A stretch of DNA of 4,905 nt from a virus (Duplodnaviria > Heunggongvirae > Uroviricota > Caudoviricetes). The stretch lies in IMG/VR virus record IMGVR_UViG_2724679172_000008; one strand, written 5' to 3'. The notes under the pieces were generated by a model. That model was not told the DNA's origin and made no database searches. It saw nothing but the letters and a program-made list of their open reading frames with translations. Each line of letters begins with the position of its first letter. The first letter of the stretch is position 1. The translations under genes and the position numbers were made by a program. Shown here piece after piece: positions 1 to 4,905 of the stretch.

Positions 1-1031
1 CCCTTTGTCGTCAGGTATTCGCAGATATATTTGTTCAGTGCTATGGGATCTTTGTGAATGTCGATCGGACGCTCACGGACAAGGCCAAAAATAGTTTGGC
101 GGTCGTAGCGAAGGGCATCAGGCTGTTTGCGCATTGATGCCGAGATACGCTTCCAGTCTTCGCGGTCGTTATCGATAACTTCATTTTTTGCCCAGCGATG
201 GATGCTGCCGTCAATGTTTCCGGCATCCACATCACCAGGCCAGAGAGCGTAGGCCAGTTCGTCATCCAGTGTTTTCCATGTCTGCTTGTATTCGCGATGA
301 ATGGCAGCAATGACCGGGCTGATTTTTCCTGTTGAATTTTCAACTGTTGAATTTTCACTGTGCTGTTGATTGGTTCTGGCGCGGGCGAGATCAATAACAG
401 ACGTGTATTTTCCGGTTTCCTTGCGTTCACCTTCGCGACGTTTTTTCCAGATGCGCATCTCTGCCTGAATTTCGGGCCATTTGGCACCAGGCTTACATTT
501 ATGCTTAACCCACCCGATGGCATGCAGCTTAAGCTCCGGATACATGGCGTTAACTTCTGGCATTTTCATCAACGCTTCAACGATATGTCCGTCGAATGTT
601 GCCATGTCTTCCTGCAACAATTCCTGTGCGCTAATAACCATATCAACGGTGATGTTTTCACATGTGTCGAACTTAACCATGACAGCGTTCTGTACTTCAG
701 GGGCCAGCTTGTCAAAAGTGACGTTCATCGGATCTGATTCAGTCTCAACCGGGACAAAAGAAGCAGACTCCTCATCCCAGCGGTTTTCCTGCATATATTC
801 AGCATCCCAGGAATCGAGGGCAGGGCGGGGTATGCCGGGTTTATCCTCACAGACAATAAATTTATAAGCGCAGTCCTGAGCTGCAGGGAATTGCTCCAGA
901 AATTGCCAATGAAATTTTGCGCGTGCGCGACGCTCATCACCAGCTTCAATGGCAGTGGCCACCGCAACAGCGCTATCTTCTTTTATGGCCTGTTCATCAG
1001 GAATAGCAGCGCAAATAAAGACCTTACTCAT
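1..1031 (-). CDS. Large early-left prophage protein, 5' part only (343 codons in window, continues past the left edge); possibly YdfE-like by position downstream of dicB and the ydfD-like gene
   Basis: ATG at 1029-1031 on the minus strand with GAGG 9 nt upstream; an in-frame stop just upstream (1038-1040) fixes the start. I checked every triplet of this frame down to position 3 and found no stop. N-terminus reads MSKVFICAAIPDEQAIKEDSAVAVATAIEAG. It is absent from the supplied ORF track only because it has no stop inside the window; track ORFs 41-523, 360-737, 481-867 and 725-967 lie in other frames over it. The product name rests on synteny alone. Confidence 0.6.
   Translation of the reverse strand, partial: MSKVFICAAIPDEQAIKEDSAVAVATAIEAGDERRARAKFHWQFLEQFPAAQDCAYKFIVCEDKPGIPRPALDSWDAEYMQENRWDEESASFVPVETESDPMNVTFDKLAPEVQNAVMVKFDTCENITVDMVISAQELLQEDMATFDGHIVEALMKMPEVNAMYPELKLHAIGWVKHKCKPGAKWPEIQAEMRIWKKRREGERKETGKYTSVIDLARARTNQQHSENSTVENSTGKISPVIAAIHREYKQTWKTLDDELAYALWPGDVDAGNIDGSIHRWAKNEVIDNDREDWKRISASMRKQPDALRYDRQTIFGLVRERPIDIHKDPIALNKYICEYLTTK
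329..358. repeat. Two tandem copies of a 15-bp unit (CTGTTGAATTTTCAA / CTGTTGAATTTTCAC) inside the large left-edge gene; each contains the near-palindrome TTGAA-TT-TTCAA
   Basis: Direct reading: TTGAATTTTCAA at 332-343 and TTGAATTTTCAC at 347-358, period 15 bp; encodes the peptide repeat ENSTV-ENSTG in the minus-strand protein. Confidence 0.5.
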
Positions 1032-1126: not shown

Positions 1127-1315
1127 TTATCCAGCCGGTGTTTCGTTATTCAGGTACAGCGATACTTTTTTTAGCGGGAGGCATTCACCAGAAATTTTTT
1201 GCTCGTCTCTTGCCTGGAGGCAGGATTCTTTACTTGCATAAATTCCGGTAATCACATTCTGTGATTCACCCGTTATAAGAAAAACCGTCATCATCAGTGC
1301 AAATGCTGAAGTCAT
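1127..1315 (-). CDS. Small protein (62 aa) with N-terminal hydrophobic helix; YdfD-like (Qin prophage small membrane/lysis protein) by size, position after dicB and N-terminal character
   Basis: Track ORF MTSAFALMMTVFLITGESQNVITGIYASKESCLQARDEQKISGECLPLKKVSLYLNNETPAG. Its ATG (1313-1315) overlaps the TGA of the upstream gene (1312-1314), the classic ATGA translational-coupling arrangement. AT-rich relative to flanks. The YdfD identification is from memory of the Qin dicB operon order, not a search. Confidence 0.55.
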   Translation of the reverse strand: MTSAFALMMTVFLITGESQNVITGIYASKESCLQARDEQKISGECLPLKKVSLYLNNETPAG

Positions 1316-1500
1316 TGACGTTCTCCGAAAATACCAAGTTCAAGAAGAGCAATTCGGGAAAGTATGGAATTATCATTGAGCAGATAAGGCTCATATTTCC
1401 TCATATTAATGGCATCTTCAGTAAACTCCCGGTTACTGAGCAGAACACCAATATCAAAACAACCTTCAGACGTATTAACGTTTGGTAATAACGTTTCCAT
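1312..1500 (-). CDS. dicB: DicB-family cell division inhibitor (62 aa)
   Basis: Translation METLLPNVNTSEGCFDIGVLLSNREFTEDAINMRKYEPYLLNDNSILSRIALLELGIFGERQ. The N-terminal half matches my recollection of E. coli K-12 DicB (M-TLLPNVNTSEGCF-IGV--SN--FTEDAIN); length is also 62 aa. GAGGA sits 7 nt upstream of the ATG (1498-1500). It lies immediately downstream of a DicF-like sRNA and an RNase III-type hairpin, as in the Qin dicB operon. Confidence 0.75.
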   Translation of the reverse strand: METLLPNVNTSEGCFDIGVLLSNREFTEDAINMRKYEPYLLNDNSILSRIALLELGIFGERQ

Positions 1501-1517
1501 TATCGCGTCCTCAACAA

Positions 1518-1674
1518 TGAATTTTGTGATGCAGTGCCTGGTGCCTCCAGGTGACGTTAACCAGTTAACAATTAACGCCGGGTTAGTTGATGCTCGTTAC
1601 GCCCGTAAAATACCGCCTTACTGCTTTAACTGTTCCGCGTGCGCATAGCCGCATTCACCGCATCACAAAATTCA
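1518..1674 (-). promoter_or_regulatory. Long hairpin between DicF and dicB: 19-bp inverted arms (1518-1536 and 1656-1674, 18/19 complementary) enclosing 119 bp; candidate RNase III processing site that releases DicF and sits 5 nt upstream of the dicB Shine-Dalgarno
   Basis: Arm 1 ATGAATTTTGTGATGCAGTG pairs with arm 2 CACCGCATCACAAAATTCA; I checked this base by base. The enclosed segment has further local dyads (CCTGG-TGCCT-CCAGG at 1537-1551, a twin GTTAAC). RNase III processing of the dicF-dicB transcript is established for Qin. Confidence 0.5.
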
Positions 1675-1678
1675 CTTT

Positions 1679-1736
1679 AAAAAGGGCGGCAGAGCAGTCA
1701 CGGAGTAAAACTGATACCGCCAAATGTCACCAGAAA
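1679..1736 (-). ncRNA. dicF: DicF-like sRNA (53-nt core, plus coordinates 1684-1736) with 3' GC stem (GGCGG/CCGCC) and U5 tract (1679-1683) acting as intrinsic terminator
   Basis: Minus-strand sequence TTTCTGGTGACATTTGGCGGTATCAGTTTTACTCCGTGACTGCTCTGCCGCCC followed by TTTTT. This matches my recollection of K-12 DicF at all but one position (A for G at position 12), which I cannot verify without a database. Context is right: dicB follows, with an RNase III-type hairpin between them. Confidence 0.7.
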
Positions 1737-1759
1737 ATTGATAACAGAGGGCGTTGTAG

Positions 1760-1800
1760 CGGGGTTGTCACTTAAGCGTATGGTCAACCTGACAACCCGG
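1760..1800. repeat. Inverted repeat CGGGGTTGTCA - 19 bp - TGACAACCCGG located 25-65 bp upstream (minus-strand sense) of the DicF 5' end
   Basis: Direct reading: 1760-1770 against 1790-1800, 10/11 complementary; followed on the plus strand by TGCATTTTCT. Confidence 0.45.
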
Positions 1801-2071
1801 TGCATTTTCTGGAGCAATGGAGGAAACCCCAGCCATACTTACCGCCGCGCCATTTCGCGGAGTGCCACAACCGGAAGCGCACGGTCGAACTAAATTTAAC
1901 GACACCGTACAGAGAGACCAATTTCGCCGTGCGCTTTCGCGTTATGCCCTGACTTTTCAGGGACATATCCTTTCAGTAAGCTGTCAGTGCCGGATGCTCA
2001 CCCGTGTCCGGCGCACGCACTCCACCTGACCCGTGGAGAACTCCTTAATTACCAACCCTCAGGAGGGTGAA

Positions 2072-2350
2072 ATGGATAAAAAGCAAATTGAGGCCCTGCA
2101 ATCTATTATTGAAGAACAAGATGAAGCTATCAGGATTCTTTCATATCGCACTGATATGATACTAAATATGCTTTCTGCATTAACGGCTGCGCTTGGTGGT
2201 ACAAAAACAAACGTATACCGCGAAGTTGTTATTCAACAGATAGATAAATTTGAAAAAACCATACCAGGTATTAATGCTCATCTTGCAGAACAAGAGAAAG
2301 ACTATGCTCTTATGGCAATTTCTTCAGTAGCTCTCCCGAAAGTTGAGTAG
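2072..2350 (+). CDS. Hypothetical protein, 92 aa; AT-rich accessory (moron-like) gene on the opposite strand inside the leftward operon
   Basis: ATG at 2072 preceded by a near-consensus Shine-Dalgarno (AGGAGG at 2061-2066, 5-nt spacer). Translation MDKKQIEALQSIIEEQDEAIRILSYRTDMILNMLSALTAALGGTKTNVYREVVIQQIDKFEKTIPGINAHLAEQEKDYALMAISSVALPKVE. Composition is visibly more AT-rich than the GC-rich region 1800-2030 just upstream. The track ORF begins at GTG 2033, but ATG 2072 has the RBS. I recognise no family. Confidence 0.5.
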   Translation: MDKKQIEALQSIIEEQDEAIRILSYRTDMILNMLSALTAALGGTKTNVYREVVIQQIDKFEKTIPGINAHLAEQEKDYALMAISSVALPKVE

Positions 2351-2723
2351 TTTTAATTGTTGTTTTGAAATAATCACTGCTTTCACATTTGAGTGATTTC
2401 ATGGCAATCCAAATGCGGGCCTCTGTGCCTGCATTTGGTTCCAGTTGCTGTAGACGTTTTGCGTCTTCCAAAAGTAAGGCGATAATGTGTTTCAGCTTCT
2501 CATCATTTGCTTGATTCTTGTTTTCAGGCGAATTCTGTCCGCCGAATAGGCGCTTCTCTTCATACAGACCTATAAAGGCACGACGCACGTTACCGGATAT
2601 AGTATCGATGGTTTCCTTTTCTACGGTACTCAGGTCAAGAGTCGCCAGTTGAGAGCGAACCACATTCGATGCCATTTCCTGGAATGGTACTGGTAAATCT
2701 TTAAATTCCATCGTCAACCTCAT
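2310..2723 (-). CDS. Hypothetical protein, 137 aa (or 133 aa from the alternative ATG at 2709-2711 with GAGG 6 nt upstream); second gene of the leftward operon
   Basis: Track ORF; its ATG (2721-2723) overlaps the TGA of the upstream small gene (2723-2725), an ATGA coupling. Acidic, helical-looking sequence with no motif I recognise. Its last 41 bp overlap the 3' end of the convergent plus-strand gene 2072-2350. Confidence 0.5.
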   Translation of the reverse strand: MRLTMEFKDLPVPFQEMASNVVRSQLATLDLSTVEKETIDTISGNVRRAFIGLYEEKRLFGGQNSPENKNQANDEKLKHIIALLLEDAKRLQQLEPNAGTEARIWIAMKSLKCESSDYFKTTIKTTQLSGELLKKLP

Positions 2724-2956
2724 CAGTCAGTGTTTCTGGTTAACCAGCGACGCGCGCCAGCTTCAGTTTTAAACGTTTTGCTTCTGGTATACGTCATCGC
2801 GGTGAACGTACCGTCCTGGTTGGGGAACACGCCACATACCAGAGATTCGCTGTTGCCAAGATCGATAGTATCCATGCTGACCTCATTTCCCCTTAACGCC
2901 GGGGTAGCGGAACAAAAACCTGCTGCATAGTTATTAAAGTTGAACCCTGCCGTCAT
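2723..2956 (-). CDS. Small hypothetical protein, first gene after the PL-like promoter: 77 aa from ATG 2954-2956 or 50 aa from ATG 2873-2875 (MDTIDLGNSESLVCGVFPNQDGTFTAMTYTRSKTFKTEAGARRWLTRNTD)
   Basis: Both candidate starts have an upstream GAGG (9 nt and 5 nt spacers). The shorter form has the size of the small genes found next to Rac/Qin-type repressors. No family assignment is possible from sequence alone. Confidence 0.45.
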   Translation of the reverse strand: MTAGFNFNNYAAGFCSATPALRGNEVSMDTIDLGNSESLVCGVFPNQDGTFTAMTYTRSKTFKTEAGARRWLTRNTD

Positions 2957-3060
2957 GTTCTTACGCCTCGGGCTGGCTACTTAACCCCTGACCACTGCCT
3001 GGTAACTCGAAGTATTGCCCTGCATTCTGTGGGGCGGGGTGGGTTGGTATGAAAAGAAGG

Positions 3061-3101
3061 ATACCCATAGGTATTTAAAAAGTAAATACCCATGGGTAAA
3101 T
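3061..3101. promoter_or_regulatory. OL-like operator pair (ATACCCATAGGTAT at 3061-3074; ATACCCATGGGTAA at 3086-3099, core TACCCATGGGTA a perfect 12-bp palindrome) overlapping a candidate leftward promoter (minus strand -35 TTTACC, 17-bp spacer, -10 TAAATA)
   Basis: Direct reading. Both sites share the half-site ATACC/GGTAT with the sites between the repressor and cro-like genes; centre-to-centre spacing is 25 bp. They lie just downstream of the repressor stop and upstream of the leftward operon, the position of lambda OL/PL. Confidence 0.5.
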
Positions 3102-3140: not shown

Positions 3141-3560
3141 CTATGATGCGTTTTGTGCTTTCTTTTTACGGATTTCTTCGTAGATCATATTGTAATACTG
3201 TTTTTTCTCTTCAAGAGTTTTTAATAATTTATCCGCTTCACTTTCTGGCAGTTCGTCTAAGAGATCTAAAAAAATACGTTGTCGTGGCGTTAGAACCCTT
3301 GTTTCATAACTGGAGGCTGTGTTCGTTGATGATGAAACGATACCATCCATCCATCCCCGGGGTAACCCAAAGGACTCTTCGATAATCTCCACCATATCAT
3401 CAGCGATCCGTTTTTTTCCCTTTTTCCCCTCTGGGTACAACATTCTTGATACATAAGAAGGCTCGCGCCCGATCTTTCTGGCCACGTTAACCGCTTTACC
3501 ATCGCATTTCTCATCACGAATTTTGATGAGTTGCTGTCGTCTAAATTCATATTTGTCCAT
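3141..3560 (-). CDS. Prophage repressor, DicA/RacR-family HTH protein (139 aa), no LexA-type peptidase domain
   Basis: Translation MDKYEFRRQQLIKIRDEKCDGKAVNVARKIGREPSYVSRMLYPEGKKGKKRIADDMVEIIEESFGLPRGWMDGIVSSSTNTASSYETRVLTPRQRIFLDLLDELPESEADKLLKTLEEKKQYYNMIYEEIRKKKAQNAS. N-terminal HTH (AVNVARKIGREPSYVSRM); the C-terminal segment L-P-x-LPESE-D-L resembles my recollection of DicA. It is divergent from a cro-like gene and flanked by operator repeats. There is no Shine-Dalgarno upstream of the ATG. Confidence 0.75.
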   Translation of the reverse strand: MDKYEFRRQQLIKIRDEKCDGKAVNVARKIGREPSYVSRMLYPEGKKGKKRIADDMVEIIEESFGLPRGWMDGIVSSSTNTASSYETRVLTPRQRIFLDLLDELPESEADKLLKTLEEKKQYYNMIYEEIRKKKAQNAS

Positions 3561-3636
3561 AGGTAAATAATAGATGCGATTACCGCAAGGTAAACAACCT
3601 GTGGGTATTGACTTTTGTTTACCTGTGGGTATTCTT
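3553..3636. promoter_or_regulatory. OR-like control region with three operator copies and back-to-back promoters. Operators: 3553-3566 (weak, overlaps the repressor ATG), 3595-3608 and 3619-3632 (both ATACCCACAGGT on the minus strand, 24 bp apart). Rightward promoter: -35 TTGACT 3608-3613, -10 TATTCT 3630-3635. Leftward repressor promoter: -35 TTTACC (plus 3589-3594), 16-bp spacer, -10 TATTAT (plus 3567-3572)
   Basis: Direct reading of hexamers and repeats. Operators overlap the -35 and -10 of the rightward promoter. The repressor -10 ends 6 nt before its ATG, so the predicted transcription start is at or next to the A of ATG. Confidence 0.55.
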
Positions 3637-4374: not shown

Positions 4375-4866
4375 ATGAGCAGCAAGCTTCATGGTCTTGT
4401 CTGGGAAGGGTGCGCCTTCACCGGCATGATCTTATCCAGGGTGGCGGTTATGGCCCGTCTTGCAGACTACAGCAATGACGAGGGCGTGTCATGGCCTGCC
4501 ATTGAAACTATCCGGCGTCAGATCGGTGCAAGAAGTGAATCCACAGTGAAATCGGCTATTGCAGAACTGGCGAAAGAGGGCTGGCTGACGAAGGAAGAGC
4601 GTAAGGTCGGTGGGCGTAATGTAAGCAATATCTATCGGCTTAATGTGGAAAAACTCGAAGCAGCTGCGGCGGCGGCGCGTGAGTCATATAAACCGAAAAG
4701 AAAAATTAGCCCGGCAAAAAATGACCCGTTAACAGTTGACCCGTCAAATATTGACCCCTCAACGGTTGACCCGTCAAATTTTGATGGATCAACTGTTGAT
4801 AAAAAACTGCCGATTAGGGGGGCGATGATTGACCCCGATCCGTCAGTATTAAAACCTGATCCGTGA
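4375..4866 (+). CDS. Phage replication initiation protein, winged-helix HTH_36 type (O-like); 163 aa from ATG 4375 (track start GTG 4360 gives 168 aa)
   Basis: The segment ARLADYSNDEGVSWPAIETIRRQIGARSESTVKSAIAELAKEGWLTKEE has the LAD-x-NDEG-x-WPS-x-TIA-x-G-x-S-x-TV-x-A-x-L pattern of HTH_36 replication proteins. The C-terminus is a DPxxV pentapeptide repeat region encoded by iteron-like DNA repeats. It follows the cII-like gene, the position of lambda O. Confidence 0.6.
   Translation: MSSKLHGLVWEGCAFTGMILSRVAVMARLADYSNDEGVSWPAIETIRRQIGARSESTVKSAIAELAKEGWLTKEERKVGGRNVSNIYRLNVEKLEAAAAAARESYKPKRKISPAKNDPLTVDPSNIDPSTVDPSNFDGSTVDKKLPIRGAMIDPDPSVLKPDP
4721..4810 (+). repeat. Six phased 15-bp repeats (iterons) inside the 3' end of the replication gene; four good copies carry the dyad TTGAC-CC-GTCAA, a fifth the variant TTGAT-GG-ATCAA, the sixth is degenerate; a further partial copy lies at 4829-4843
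   Basis: Copies start at 4721, 4736, 4751, 4766, 4781 and 4796 (ATGACCCGTTAACAG, TTGACCCGTCAAATA, TTGACCCCTCAACGG, TTGACCCGTCAAATT, TTGATGGATCAACTG, TTGATAAAAAACTGC). Embedding origin iterons in the initiator gene is established for lambda O. Confidence 0.55.
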
Positions 4867-4905
4867 ACCGCCCCGGGAATCCTGGAGACTAAACTTCCTG
4901 AGAAA

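Follow-up and report, generated by a model that had tools for sequence, protein, structure and literature searches.

An ordinary dicF-dicB-ydfD module, in its canonical place, in a lambdoid prophage

The window, by which is meant the whole stretch of 4,905 nucleotides that was analyzed, carries on its minus strand a repressor gene, a set of genes leading away from it, the small RNA DicF, dicB, a ydfD-type gene and, at the window edge, an exonuclease gene. The identities of these elements, their order and strands, the operators on either side of the repressor gene and the homology of the region to the Qin prophage of Escherichia coli K-12 can be read directly from the DNA. The features are given here one to a line, with the evidence for each in brackets and with promoter assignments marked as putative.

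1..1031, minus strand: 5' part of a YdfE-type exonuclease gene that runs off the window (identity to K-12 YdfE; PHROG 2082)
1127..1315, minus strand: ydfD-type gene (DUF1482), 62 aa, whose start overlaps the dicB stop in ATGA (Pfam PF07358)
1312..1500, minus strand: dicB, a 62-aa cell-division inhibitor by homology, with a non-K-12 C-terminal allele (Pfam, NCBIfam)
1501..1678, minus strand: DicF-dicB spacer with the dicB ribosome-binding site (K-12 alignment)
1679..1683, minus strand: U5 tract, the intrinsic terminator tail after the DicF hairpin (sequence reading; identical in K-12)
1684..1736, minus strand: DicF small RNA, 53 nt, with a 3' terminator hairpin (Rfam RF00039, K-12 alignment and centroid fold)
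1737..2063, minus strand: structured untranslated leader, the DicF precursor region (K-12 alignment and folding)
2072-2350, plus strand: 92-aa ORF, convergent, between the putative leftward promoter and DicF (open reading frame)
2310..2723, minus strand: 137-aa ORF of unknown function in the ydfB/ydfC position (PHROG 1363, E 1e-44)
2723..2875, minus strand: ydfA homologue (DUF1391), the first gene of the leftward operon (Pfam DUF1391, 93 bits)
3058..3098, minus strand: OL-type operators (3062-3073 and 3087-3098) and putative PL-type promoter
3086-3058, minus strand: the putative leftward promoter itself (-35 TTTACT at 3086-3081, 17 nt, -10 TATCCT at 3063-3058)
3141..3560, minus strand: prophage repressor, 139 aa, a putative functional counterpart of DicA/CI (PHROG 5736 transcriptional regulator, E 6e-70)
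3581..3631, no single strand: OR-type operators (3581-3592, 3596-3607 and 3620-3631) with divergent PR/PRM-like promoters

A DicF-like RNA with a 3' stem and a U tract had been proposed for the minus strand, and the covariance model of the family bears this out. Run against the whole window, RF00039 gave a significant match inside the proposed interval of 1679-1736, at 1735-1684 on the minus strand, covering the full model (52 of 52 positions) with a score of 77.0 bits (E 2.2e-16; the gathering score is 48 bits); K-12 dicF itself scores 76.7 bits on the same model. No other Rfam family rose above its threshold in the whole-window scan. Over 1736-1684, 52 of the 53 bases are identical to K-12 dicF, the sole change being an A for a G at window position 1725, and the expected 3' hairpin, GGCGGUA...UGCCGCC, emerges from a centroid fold, with UUUUU next to it at 1683-1679. 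This layout of an unpaired 5' region, a 3' hairpin and a U tract has the form of an intrinsic terminator.

The sequence on the upstream side of DicF, about 330 nt of leader, aligns at high identity with the spacer between ydfC and dicF of K-12, leader and DicF being conserved together as one block. The two fold together at -149 kcal/mol (z -3.1), a stability matched by 0 of 100 shuffles. On the downstream side, dicB lies on the same strand and starts 183 nt from DicF; the intervening spacer also aligns with K-12, its one divergent stretch being a short middle segment with an 8-nt indel, and the dicB ribosome-binding site, GAGG, stands 8 nt ahead of the ATG. A match to STnc100 within this spacer was rejected as sub-threshold (31 versus 47 bits) and is read as a shared motif rather than a member of that family; genuine copies of STnc100 occur elsewhere in prophages of the same type. 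Three further Rfam candidates were likewise discarded: the mir-2041 match at 3062-3098 is the operator palindrome, the mir-250 match at 4731-4797 corresponds to ori-type iterons, and ZEB2_AS1 reached 17.9 bits, where the gathering score is 70.

The 62-residue protein encoded beyond DicF is, as predicted, a homologue of DicB. It aligns with the K-12 protein and passes both curated models, scoring 125.5 bits against Pfam PF05358 (cut-off 27) over residues 1-62 of 62 and 114.2 bits against NCBIfam NF049927 (cut-off 100). The next gene, whose start shares an ATGA with the dicB stop, is predicted from this overlap to be translationally coupled to dicB, and its product matches the DUF1482 family of Pfam PF07358 at 54 bits (cut-off 25), with both cysteines (C32 and C45) invariant in the alignment with K-12 YdfD. 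Of its earlier description as a coupled membrane protein of 62 residues, the likeness to YdfD and the coupling stand, but the membrane label is unsupported, the sole hydrophobic stretch being some 15 residues at the N-terminus. YdfD has been described in K-12 as a lysis protein whose gene overlaps dicB and whose lytic effect is offset by DicB, with lysis and binding to IspG known for K-12 YdfD only (PMC8835842).

Beyond the ydfD-type gene, a large intact reading frame had been noted; it starts at 1031 on the minus strand, remains open for 343 codons up to the window edge and encodes a YdfE-like protein. It matches the exonucleases of PHROG 2082 with an E value of 7e-261 (the family has 823 profile positions), and matching genomes annotate an exonuclease gene of 2.47 kb at this place. 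Pairwise alignment of the three products with their K-12 counterparts gives identities of 63% for DicB, 44% for YdfD and 93%, over 255 aa, for YdfE. With dicF, dicB and the ydfD-type gene all intact, the description of the cassette as undegraded is upheld.

Of the 62 residues of the window's DicB, 39 are identical to those of K-12 DicB, with near-complete identity over residues 1-35 and poor identity over 36-62, and the corresponding DNA identity collapses past approximately codon 33-36 and stays low through ydfD, a pattern that points to a mosaic junction inside dicB. The original prediction was correct that the C-terminal half differs from K-12, but this half belongs to a common, annotated allele class and is no peculiarity of the locus. 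In a database search the DicB family comprised 142 clusters, many of which bear the NCBI name DicB; several clusters of the window type are large, one with 521 members. In an alignment of 19 representatives the family resolves by C-terminus into two classes, that of the window and that of K-12, along with a few recombinants. Judged from these comparisons, the DicB of the window is one of two common allele classes and is annotated as DicB in many genomes.

A functional shift could nonetheless be read into the sharp change within DicB, the junction in its gene, the existence of two classes with occasional recombinants and the co-variation of DicB and YdfD alleles in the four loci compared. By this reading, the divergent C-terminal half of DicB and the divergent YdfD allele that accompanies it would mark a change in partner or target specificity, concerning MinC, ZipA or the ManYZ-related exclusion of phages. 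The features that the two classes have in common argue against it. E37, I46, S48 and A51 are invariant in both classes among the 19 representatives, and L41 is nearly so; an AlphaFold (AF2) model of the window protein, small, helical and of moderate confidence (pLDDT 71.6), predicts a helix at 46-55; both classes pass the curated DicB models; and alleles of the window class are very frequent, within the same operon context. The papers that were read on DicB yielded no residue map for MinC binding, and a search for a solved DicB structure found none. A shift of this kind is accordingly held to be unlikely. The same low probability attaches to the narrower proposal that the non-K-12 C-terminus YEPYLLNDNSILSRIALLELGIFGERQ, together with the matching divergent YdfD allele in the loci compared, confers a different specificity for partners or for phage exclusion. 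As for an altered interaction with MinC, which the original prediction had raised, the comparisons speak neither for nor against it, and it is considered unlikely. If a difference in specificity were real, the two DicB/YdfD allele classes would constitute functionally distinct modules, kept apart by the intragenic recombination junction.

Control of the module is suggested by the sequences around the repressor gene. The motif TACC-N4-GGTA, allowing at most one mismatch, occurs seven times in the window, where 0.97 copies would be expected by chance and where 0 of 200 shuffles reach seven. Five of these copies flank the ORF of the 139-aa repressor, two at 3062-3098, the site of a 16-bp inverted repeat, and three at 3581-3631, which agrees with the placing of OL-like operators upstream of a cassette that is co-directional with the repressor. 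The three copies at 3581-3631 are accompanied by a PR-like promoter on the plus strand, TTGACT-16-TATTCT at 3608-3635. A PL-type promoter is assigned to the other side because the layout there parallels that of the PR-like site, with an operator, a -35 element and a -10 element overlapping the second operator; its -10/-35 match to consensus is weak, and it was missed by the promoter scan.

The leftward genes nearest to these operators differ in how closely they follow Qin. The ydfA homologue is 88% identical to K-12 YdfA (RefSeq annotates a 50-aa form). The 137-aa ORF beside it was considered as a fusion of YdfB and YdfC, an assignment that was rejected on finding no similarity to either protein. 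Between 3050 and 1736 the minus strand showed no site resembling a terminator. Leftward transcription must, however, cross the opposing 92-aa gene (2072-2350, plus strand) that lies between the putative promoter and DicF, and for which a tblastn search of phage records returned no match.

With high confidence, the region represents the dicBF module of an early-left (lambda PL-type) operon in a lambdoid prophage of the ompW-adjacent type, and no observation speaks against the identification. For the existence of a single transcript, its processing and the activities of its products, the model draws on experimental work in K-12. In the lysogen, the 139-aa repressor would bind TACC-N4-GGTA on both sides of its own gene and shut the leftward promoter at approximately 3086-3058. 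Derepression would lead to a leftward polycistronic RNA spanning the ydfA homologue, the 137-aa ORF, the leader of about 330 nt, DicF, dicB, the ydfD-type gene and the exonuclease gene, and continuing outside the window to xis and int. Nuclease processing on its 5' side would free DicF from this RNA, while the hairpin and U tract of DicF would set its 3' end, with read-through past the hairpin supplying dicB and the ydfD-type gene. By homology, DicF would pair with ftsZ and other host mRNAs, DicB would block division with MinC and the YdfD-type protein would serve as a lysis factor; together the three products may arrest host division early after induction.

A quite different arrangement would make the cassette an autonomous moron, with DicF and dicB expressed in the lysogen, independently of the repressor, from a promoter of their own in or just upstream of the leader (about 1740-2070), and with the convergent 92-aa gene insulating them from the PL-type promoter. 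The position of that gene fits such a role, facing the leftward operon exactly where Qin homology stops, as does the conservation of the leader in one block with DicF; in K-12, moreover, DicF accumulates in stationary phase despite a repressed dicBp (PMC10448788). Against this, a scan of the minus strand from 2350 to 1736 found no promoter-like site, and the corresponding leader of K-12 lies within a ydfABC-dicF transcript from which DicF is made by processing (PMC10448788). The Rac prophage has sieB convergent inside its own leftward operon, and therefore an opposing gene need not mean insulation. Autonomous expression is thus judged very unlikely, and transcription of the cassette as part of the early-left operon is the preferred reading.

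The immunity genes under which the operon stands had been typed as RacR/YdaS/YdaT, a description that holds only in part. Rightward of the repressor gene, the plus strand encodes a 93-aa Cro-like protein, a 141-aa YdaT/CII-like protein and an O-like replication initiator. The YdaT-like protein passes the Pfam model YdaT_toxin (37.8 bits; cut-off 21), has 31% full-length identity to YdaT and falls in the CII-like PHROG 163, its gene following that of the Cro-like protein. The Cro-like protein shares 15 of 28 residues with YdaS but, at 25.8 bits, stays under the cut-off of 30 for Pfam YdaS_toxin. The repressor is unlike RacR: BLASTP found no similarity between them (E 2.3), by which a repressor of the RacR type is rejected, and the protein has no Pfam match either. 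Over its last 46 residues it is 33% identical to DicA, and against the NCBIfam DicA model it scores 24.5 bits, far under the cut-off.

How the cassette is connected to its repressor was a point on which the original prediction was wrong, since it supposed a wiring different from that of Qin. The K-12 annotation of Qin has dicA, ydfA, ydfB, ydfC, dicF, dicB, ydfD, ydfE and intQ on one strand and dicC, with ydfX and ydfW, on the opposite strand, so that the cassette already lies on the dicA strand and dicC is divergent. In published work, dicBp is a lambda PL-like promoter, just downstream of dicA and repressed by DicA, the spacer between dicA and dicBp holds operators like those controlling lambda PL, and the dicAC locus is immediately upstream (PMC10448788, PMC6832061). 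From the strand of the Qin cassette and the PL-like nature of dicBp it follows that the window is wired like Qin; the claimed novelty rested on an incorrect K-12 map, with the cassette placed downstream of the Cro-like dicC. The order in the window, namely repressor, OL, ydfA and so on to DicF, dicB, ydfD, ydfE and eventually int, is that of Qin. That the cassette was moved to the repressor side from a rightward operon on the Cro side, its supposed place in Qin, and so acquired a new wiring under RacR-type immunity is scarcely credible: its orientation with the repressor, its location downstream of OL-type operators and immunity genes unlike dicA/dicC would suit such a move, but Qin itself has its cassette past dicA on the dicA strand, the literature has dicBp PL-like and DicA-repressed, both flanks are common to Qin (ydfA 88%, ydfE 93%), the repressor is no RacR homologue, and annotated genomes already hold a genuine racR locus of the same layout. 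The prophage of UTAK-6 is such a locus, where racR is annotated together with a YdaT-family gene and, in the same orientation, ydfA-ydfB-ydfC-DicF-dicB-DUF1482-exonuclease, and the combination of racR-type immunity with dicBF is therefore already present in annotated genomes.

Loci of this kind are widespread. Among 5426 complete E. coli genomes, 998 contain the 610-nt cassette at a coverage of at least 80% and 4641 contain some part of it, and the whole window is found at a coverage of at least 80% in 104, at up to 99.7% identity. In strain CE10, whose locus is 99.5% identical to the window, the operon leads into the 2.47-kb exonuclease gene, an excisionase, an integrase and an attachment site beside ompW. 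DicB homologues in the same position also occur in phage records, among them those of mEp460, Tritos, HannyBb and the EHEC PPompW prophages. That many E. coli prophages have a dicBF locus, at times in more than one copy, has been on record since 2016 (PMC5069750).

Bases 4864-4905, the final 42 of the window, are identical to the left end of an annotated IS3-family element of UTAK-6, and they cut the O-like replication gene after about 163 codons, the intact CE10 form being 320 aa. The cut in the replication gene makes it likely that the element is a defective prophage and not a phage that can be induced. The dicF-dicB-ydfD module is real, ordinary and in the place where such modules are usually found, and it is already known. 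Its import beyond correct annotation is small, and the question that it touches, whether the two common DicB/YdfD classes behave differently, is a modest one. The locus does present the decayed dicBF operon of Qin in a more complete form, with a full-length exonuclease gene, xis, int and swappable immunity modules, and bears out that DicF, DicB and YdfD travel as one early-left block under whatever repressor the prophage carries.

Placement of a division inhibitor in an early-left operon is a strategy found in other lambdoid elements as well. The PL operon of lambda includes the kil division inhibitor as an early-left gene, controlled by the repressor at OL and situated between the immunity genes and those for recombination and integration. 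The window shares with it a division inhibitor in the early-left operon, built from components without sequence similarity; it differs in that neither an N gene nor nut sites could be identified in the window. The Rac prophage provides another parallel. Its early-left operon, consisting of racR, ydaG, ydaF, sieB, kilS, kilR, ydaE, racC, recE and recT, resembles the window in having a repressor, a DUF1391 gene, a convergent gene (sieB), a small RNA with a small FtsZ-directed division inhibitor, an exonuclease, xis and int, and rightward genes that are YdaT-like and, for the window tentatively, YdaS-like. In contrast, Rac has KilR/KilS instead of DicB/DicF, RacR is unrelated to the repressor of the window, and RecE is only weakly similar to its exonuclease.

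Lambdoid prophages of pathogenic E. coli are a further parallel. CP-933M/O/P of O157:H7 and PPompW of EHEC bear the same cassette within large lambdoid prophages (PMC5069750). The PPompW phage records match positions 1-2071 of the window at 88.6%, and the PPompW DicB is 95% identical to that of the window; in an O157:H7 genome, 92% of the cassette has a counterpart, at 96.6% identity. The immunity region and the module at 2064-2730 differ among these prophages, which represents ordinary lambdoid mosaicism.

The Qin dicBF operon itself has the same gene order as the window and the same strand relation to the repressor (DicA), along with operators between the repressor gene and the operon, an overlap of dicB with ydfD and an integrase as the most distant gene of the operon. 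The two diverge in their immunity genes, the window having a YdaT-like and a tentatively YdaS-like protein in place of DicC and a repressor that is DicA-like at the C-terminus only. Furthermore, ydfB and ydfC of Qin are replaced in the window by the 137-aa ORF and the convergent 92-aa ORF, and DicB residues 36-62 and YdfD are of the other allele class (63% and 44% identity for the two proteins). In Qin, ydfE is cut by IS2, whereas the exonuclease gene of the window has no IS2 cut over the part that lies within it. Taken as a whole, the dicBF module of the window is very probably the orthologue, in both gene content and location, of the Qin dicBF operon, and less decayed.

The resemblance of the cassette to that of the cryptic Qin prophage of E. 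coli K-12 changes abruptly within dicB. Window and K-12 DNA are about 90% or more identical across the DicF leader and on as far as dicB codon 33-36, from which point identity is near-random through ydfD, and likeness to K-12 is regained in ydfE, where the proteins are 93% identical. Recombinant DicB alleles are known, as represented by the family members P0066 and P0058. Features noted in the window are as follows.

1395-1410, inside dicB: mosaic junction
2072-2350, plus strand: ORF of 92 aa (PHROG 18692), preceded by a good ribosome-binding site
3058-3098 and 3581-3635, on both sides of the repressor gene: five palindromic 12-bp operators, TACC-N4-GGTA
3141-3560, minus strand: repressor, 139 aa
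4716-4797, inside the O-like gene: iteron-like 15-bp repeats, 4-6 copies, core TTGACCCGTC
4864-4905, the final 42 bases of the window: left end of an insertion sequence of the IS3 family

In 2016, sequenced phage genomes were reported to be without a DicB or DicF homologue (PMC5069750). The current phage collection holds a DicB homologue in 20 records (H53-H72), among them mEp460, Tritos, HannyBb, PhiR42_1, vB_Eco phages and PPompW, and the cassette is therefore not limited to defective prophages.

The spacer between DicF and dicB gives a sub-threshold match to STnc100 (1468-1686, minus strand; 31 versus 47 bits), with which it has the hairpin CACCUGGAGGCACCAGGCAC in common. In strain CE10, the same prophage type has two genuine copies of STnc100, scoring 136 and 165 bits, in its late region (locus L001, 25074-25264 and 25542-25751).

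The repressor has neither a Pfam domain nor an S24 peptidase domain and is unrelated to RacR; its likeness to DicA is limited to the C-terminal 46 residues. Like that of DicA, its induction probably does not proceed by RecA-mediated self-cleavage. The predicted PL-type and PR-type promoters share one layout of operators and hexamers. The left operator pair forms a 16-bp perfect-looking hairpin, mis-scored by scans both as a terminator and as a miRNA.

At the right end, the bases of the insertion sequence terminus are identical to 6176-6217 of L004, a prophage locus of strain UTAK-6, a locus in which they are followed by an IS3 transposase gene and an ALIL pseudoknot. The element interrupts the O-like replication initiator gene after about 163 codons and provides a TGA as its stop, and the prophage of this genome is therefore probably replication-defective. 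The placing of the iteron-like repeats within the O-like gene resembles the lambda origin; together they build an imperfect palindrome, mis-scored as Rfam mir-250.

The 92-aa ORF, which had no match in Pfam, in NCBIfam or by tblastn of the phage collection, is oriented convergently to the leftward operon, and 41 nt of it overlap the 3' end of the operon's 137-aa ORF. The module containing it (2064-2730) is present in 124 of 5426 E. coli genomes. In K-12, ydfC holds exactly the position that this opposite-strand ORF takes in the window, and its placement also recalls that of sieB in Rac.
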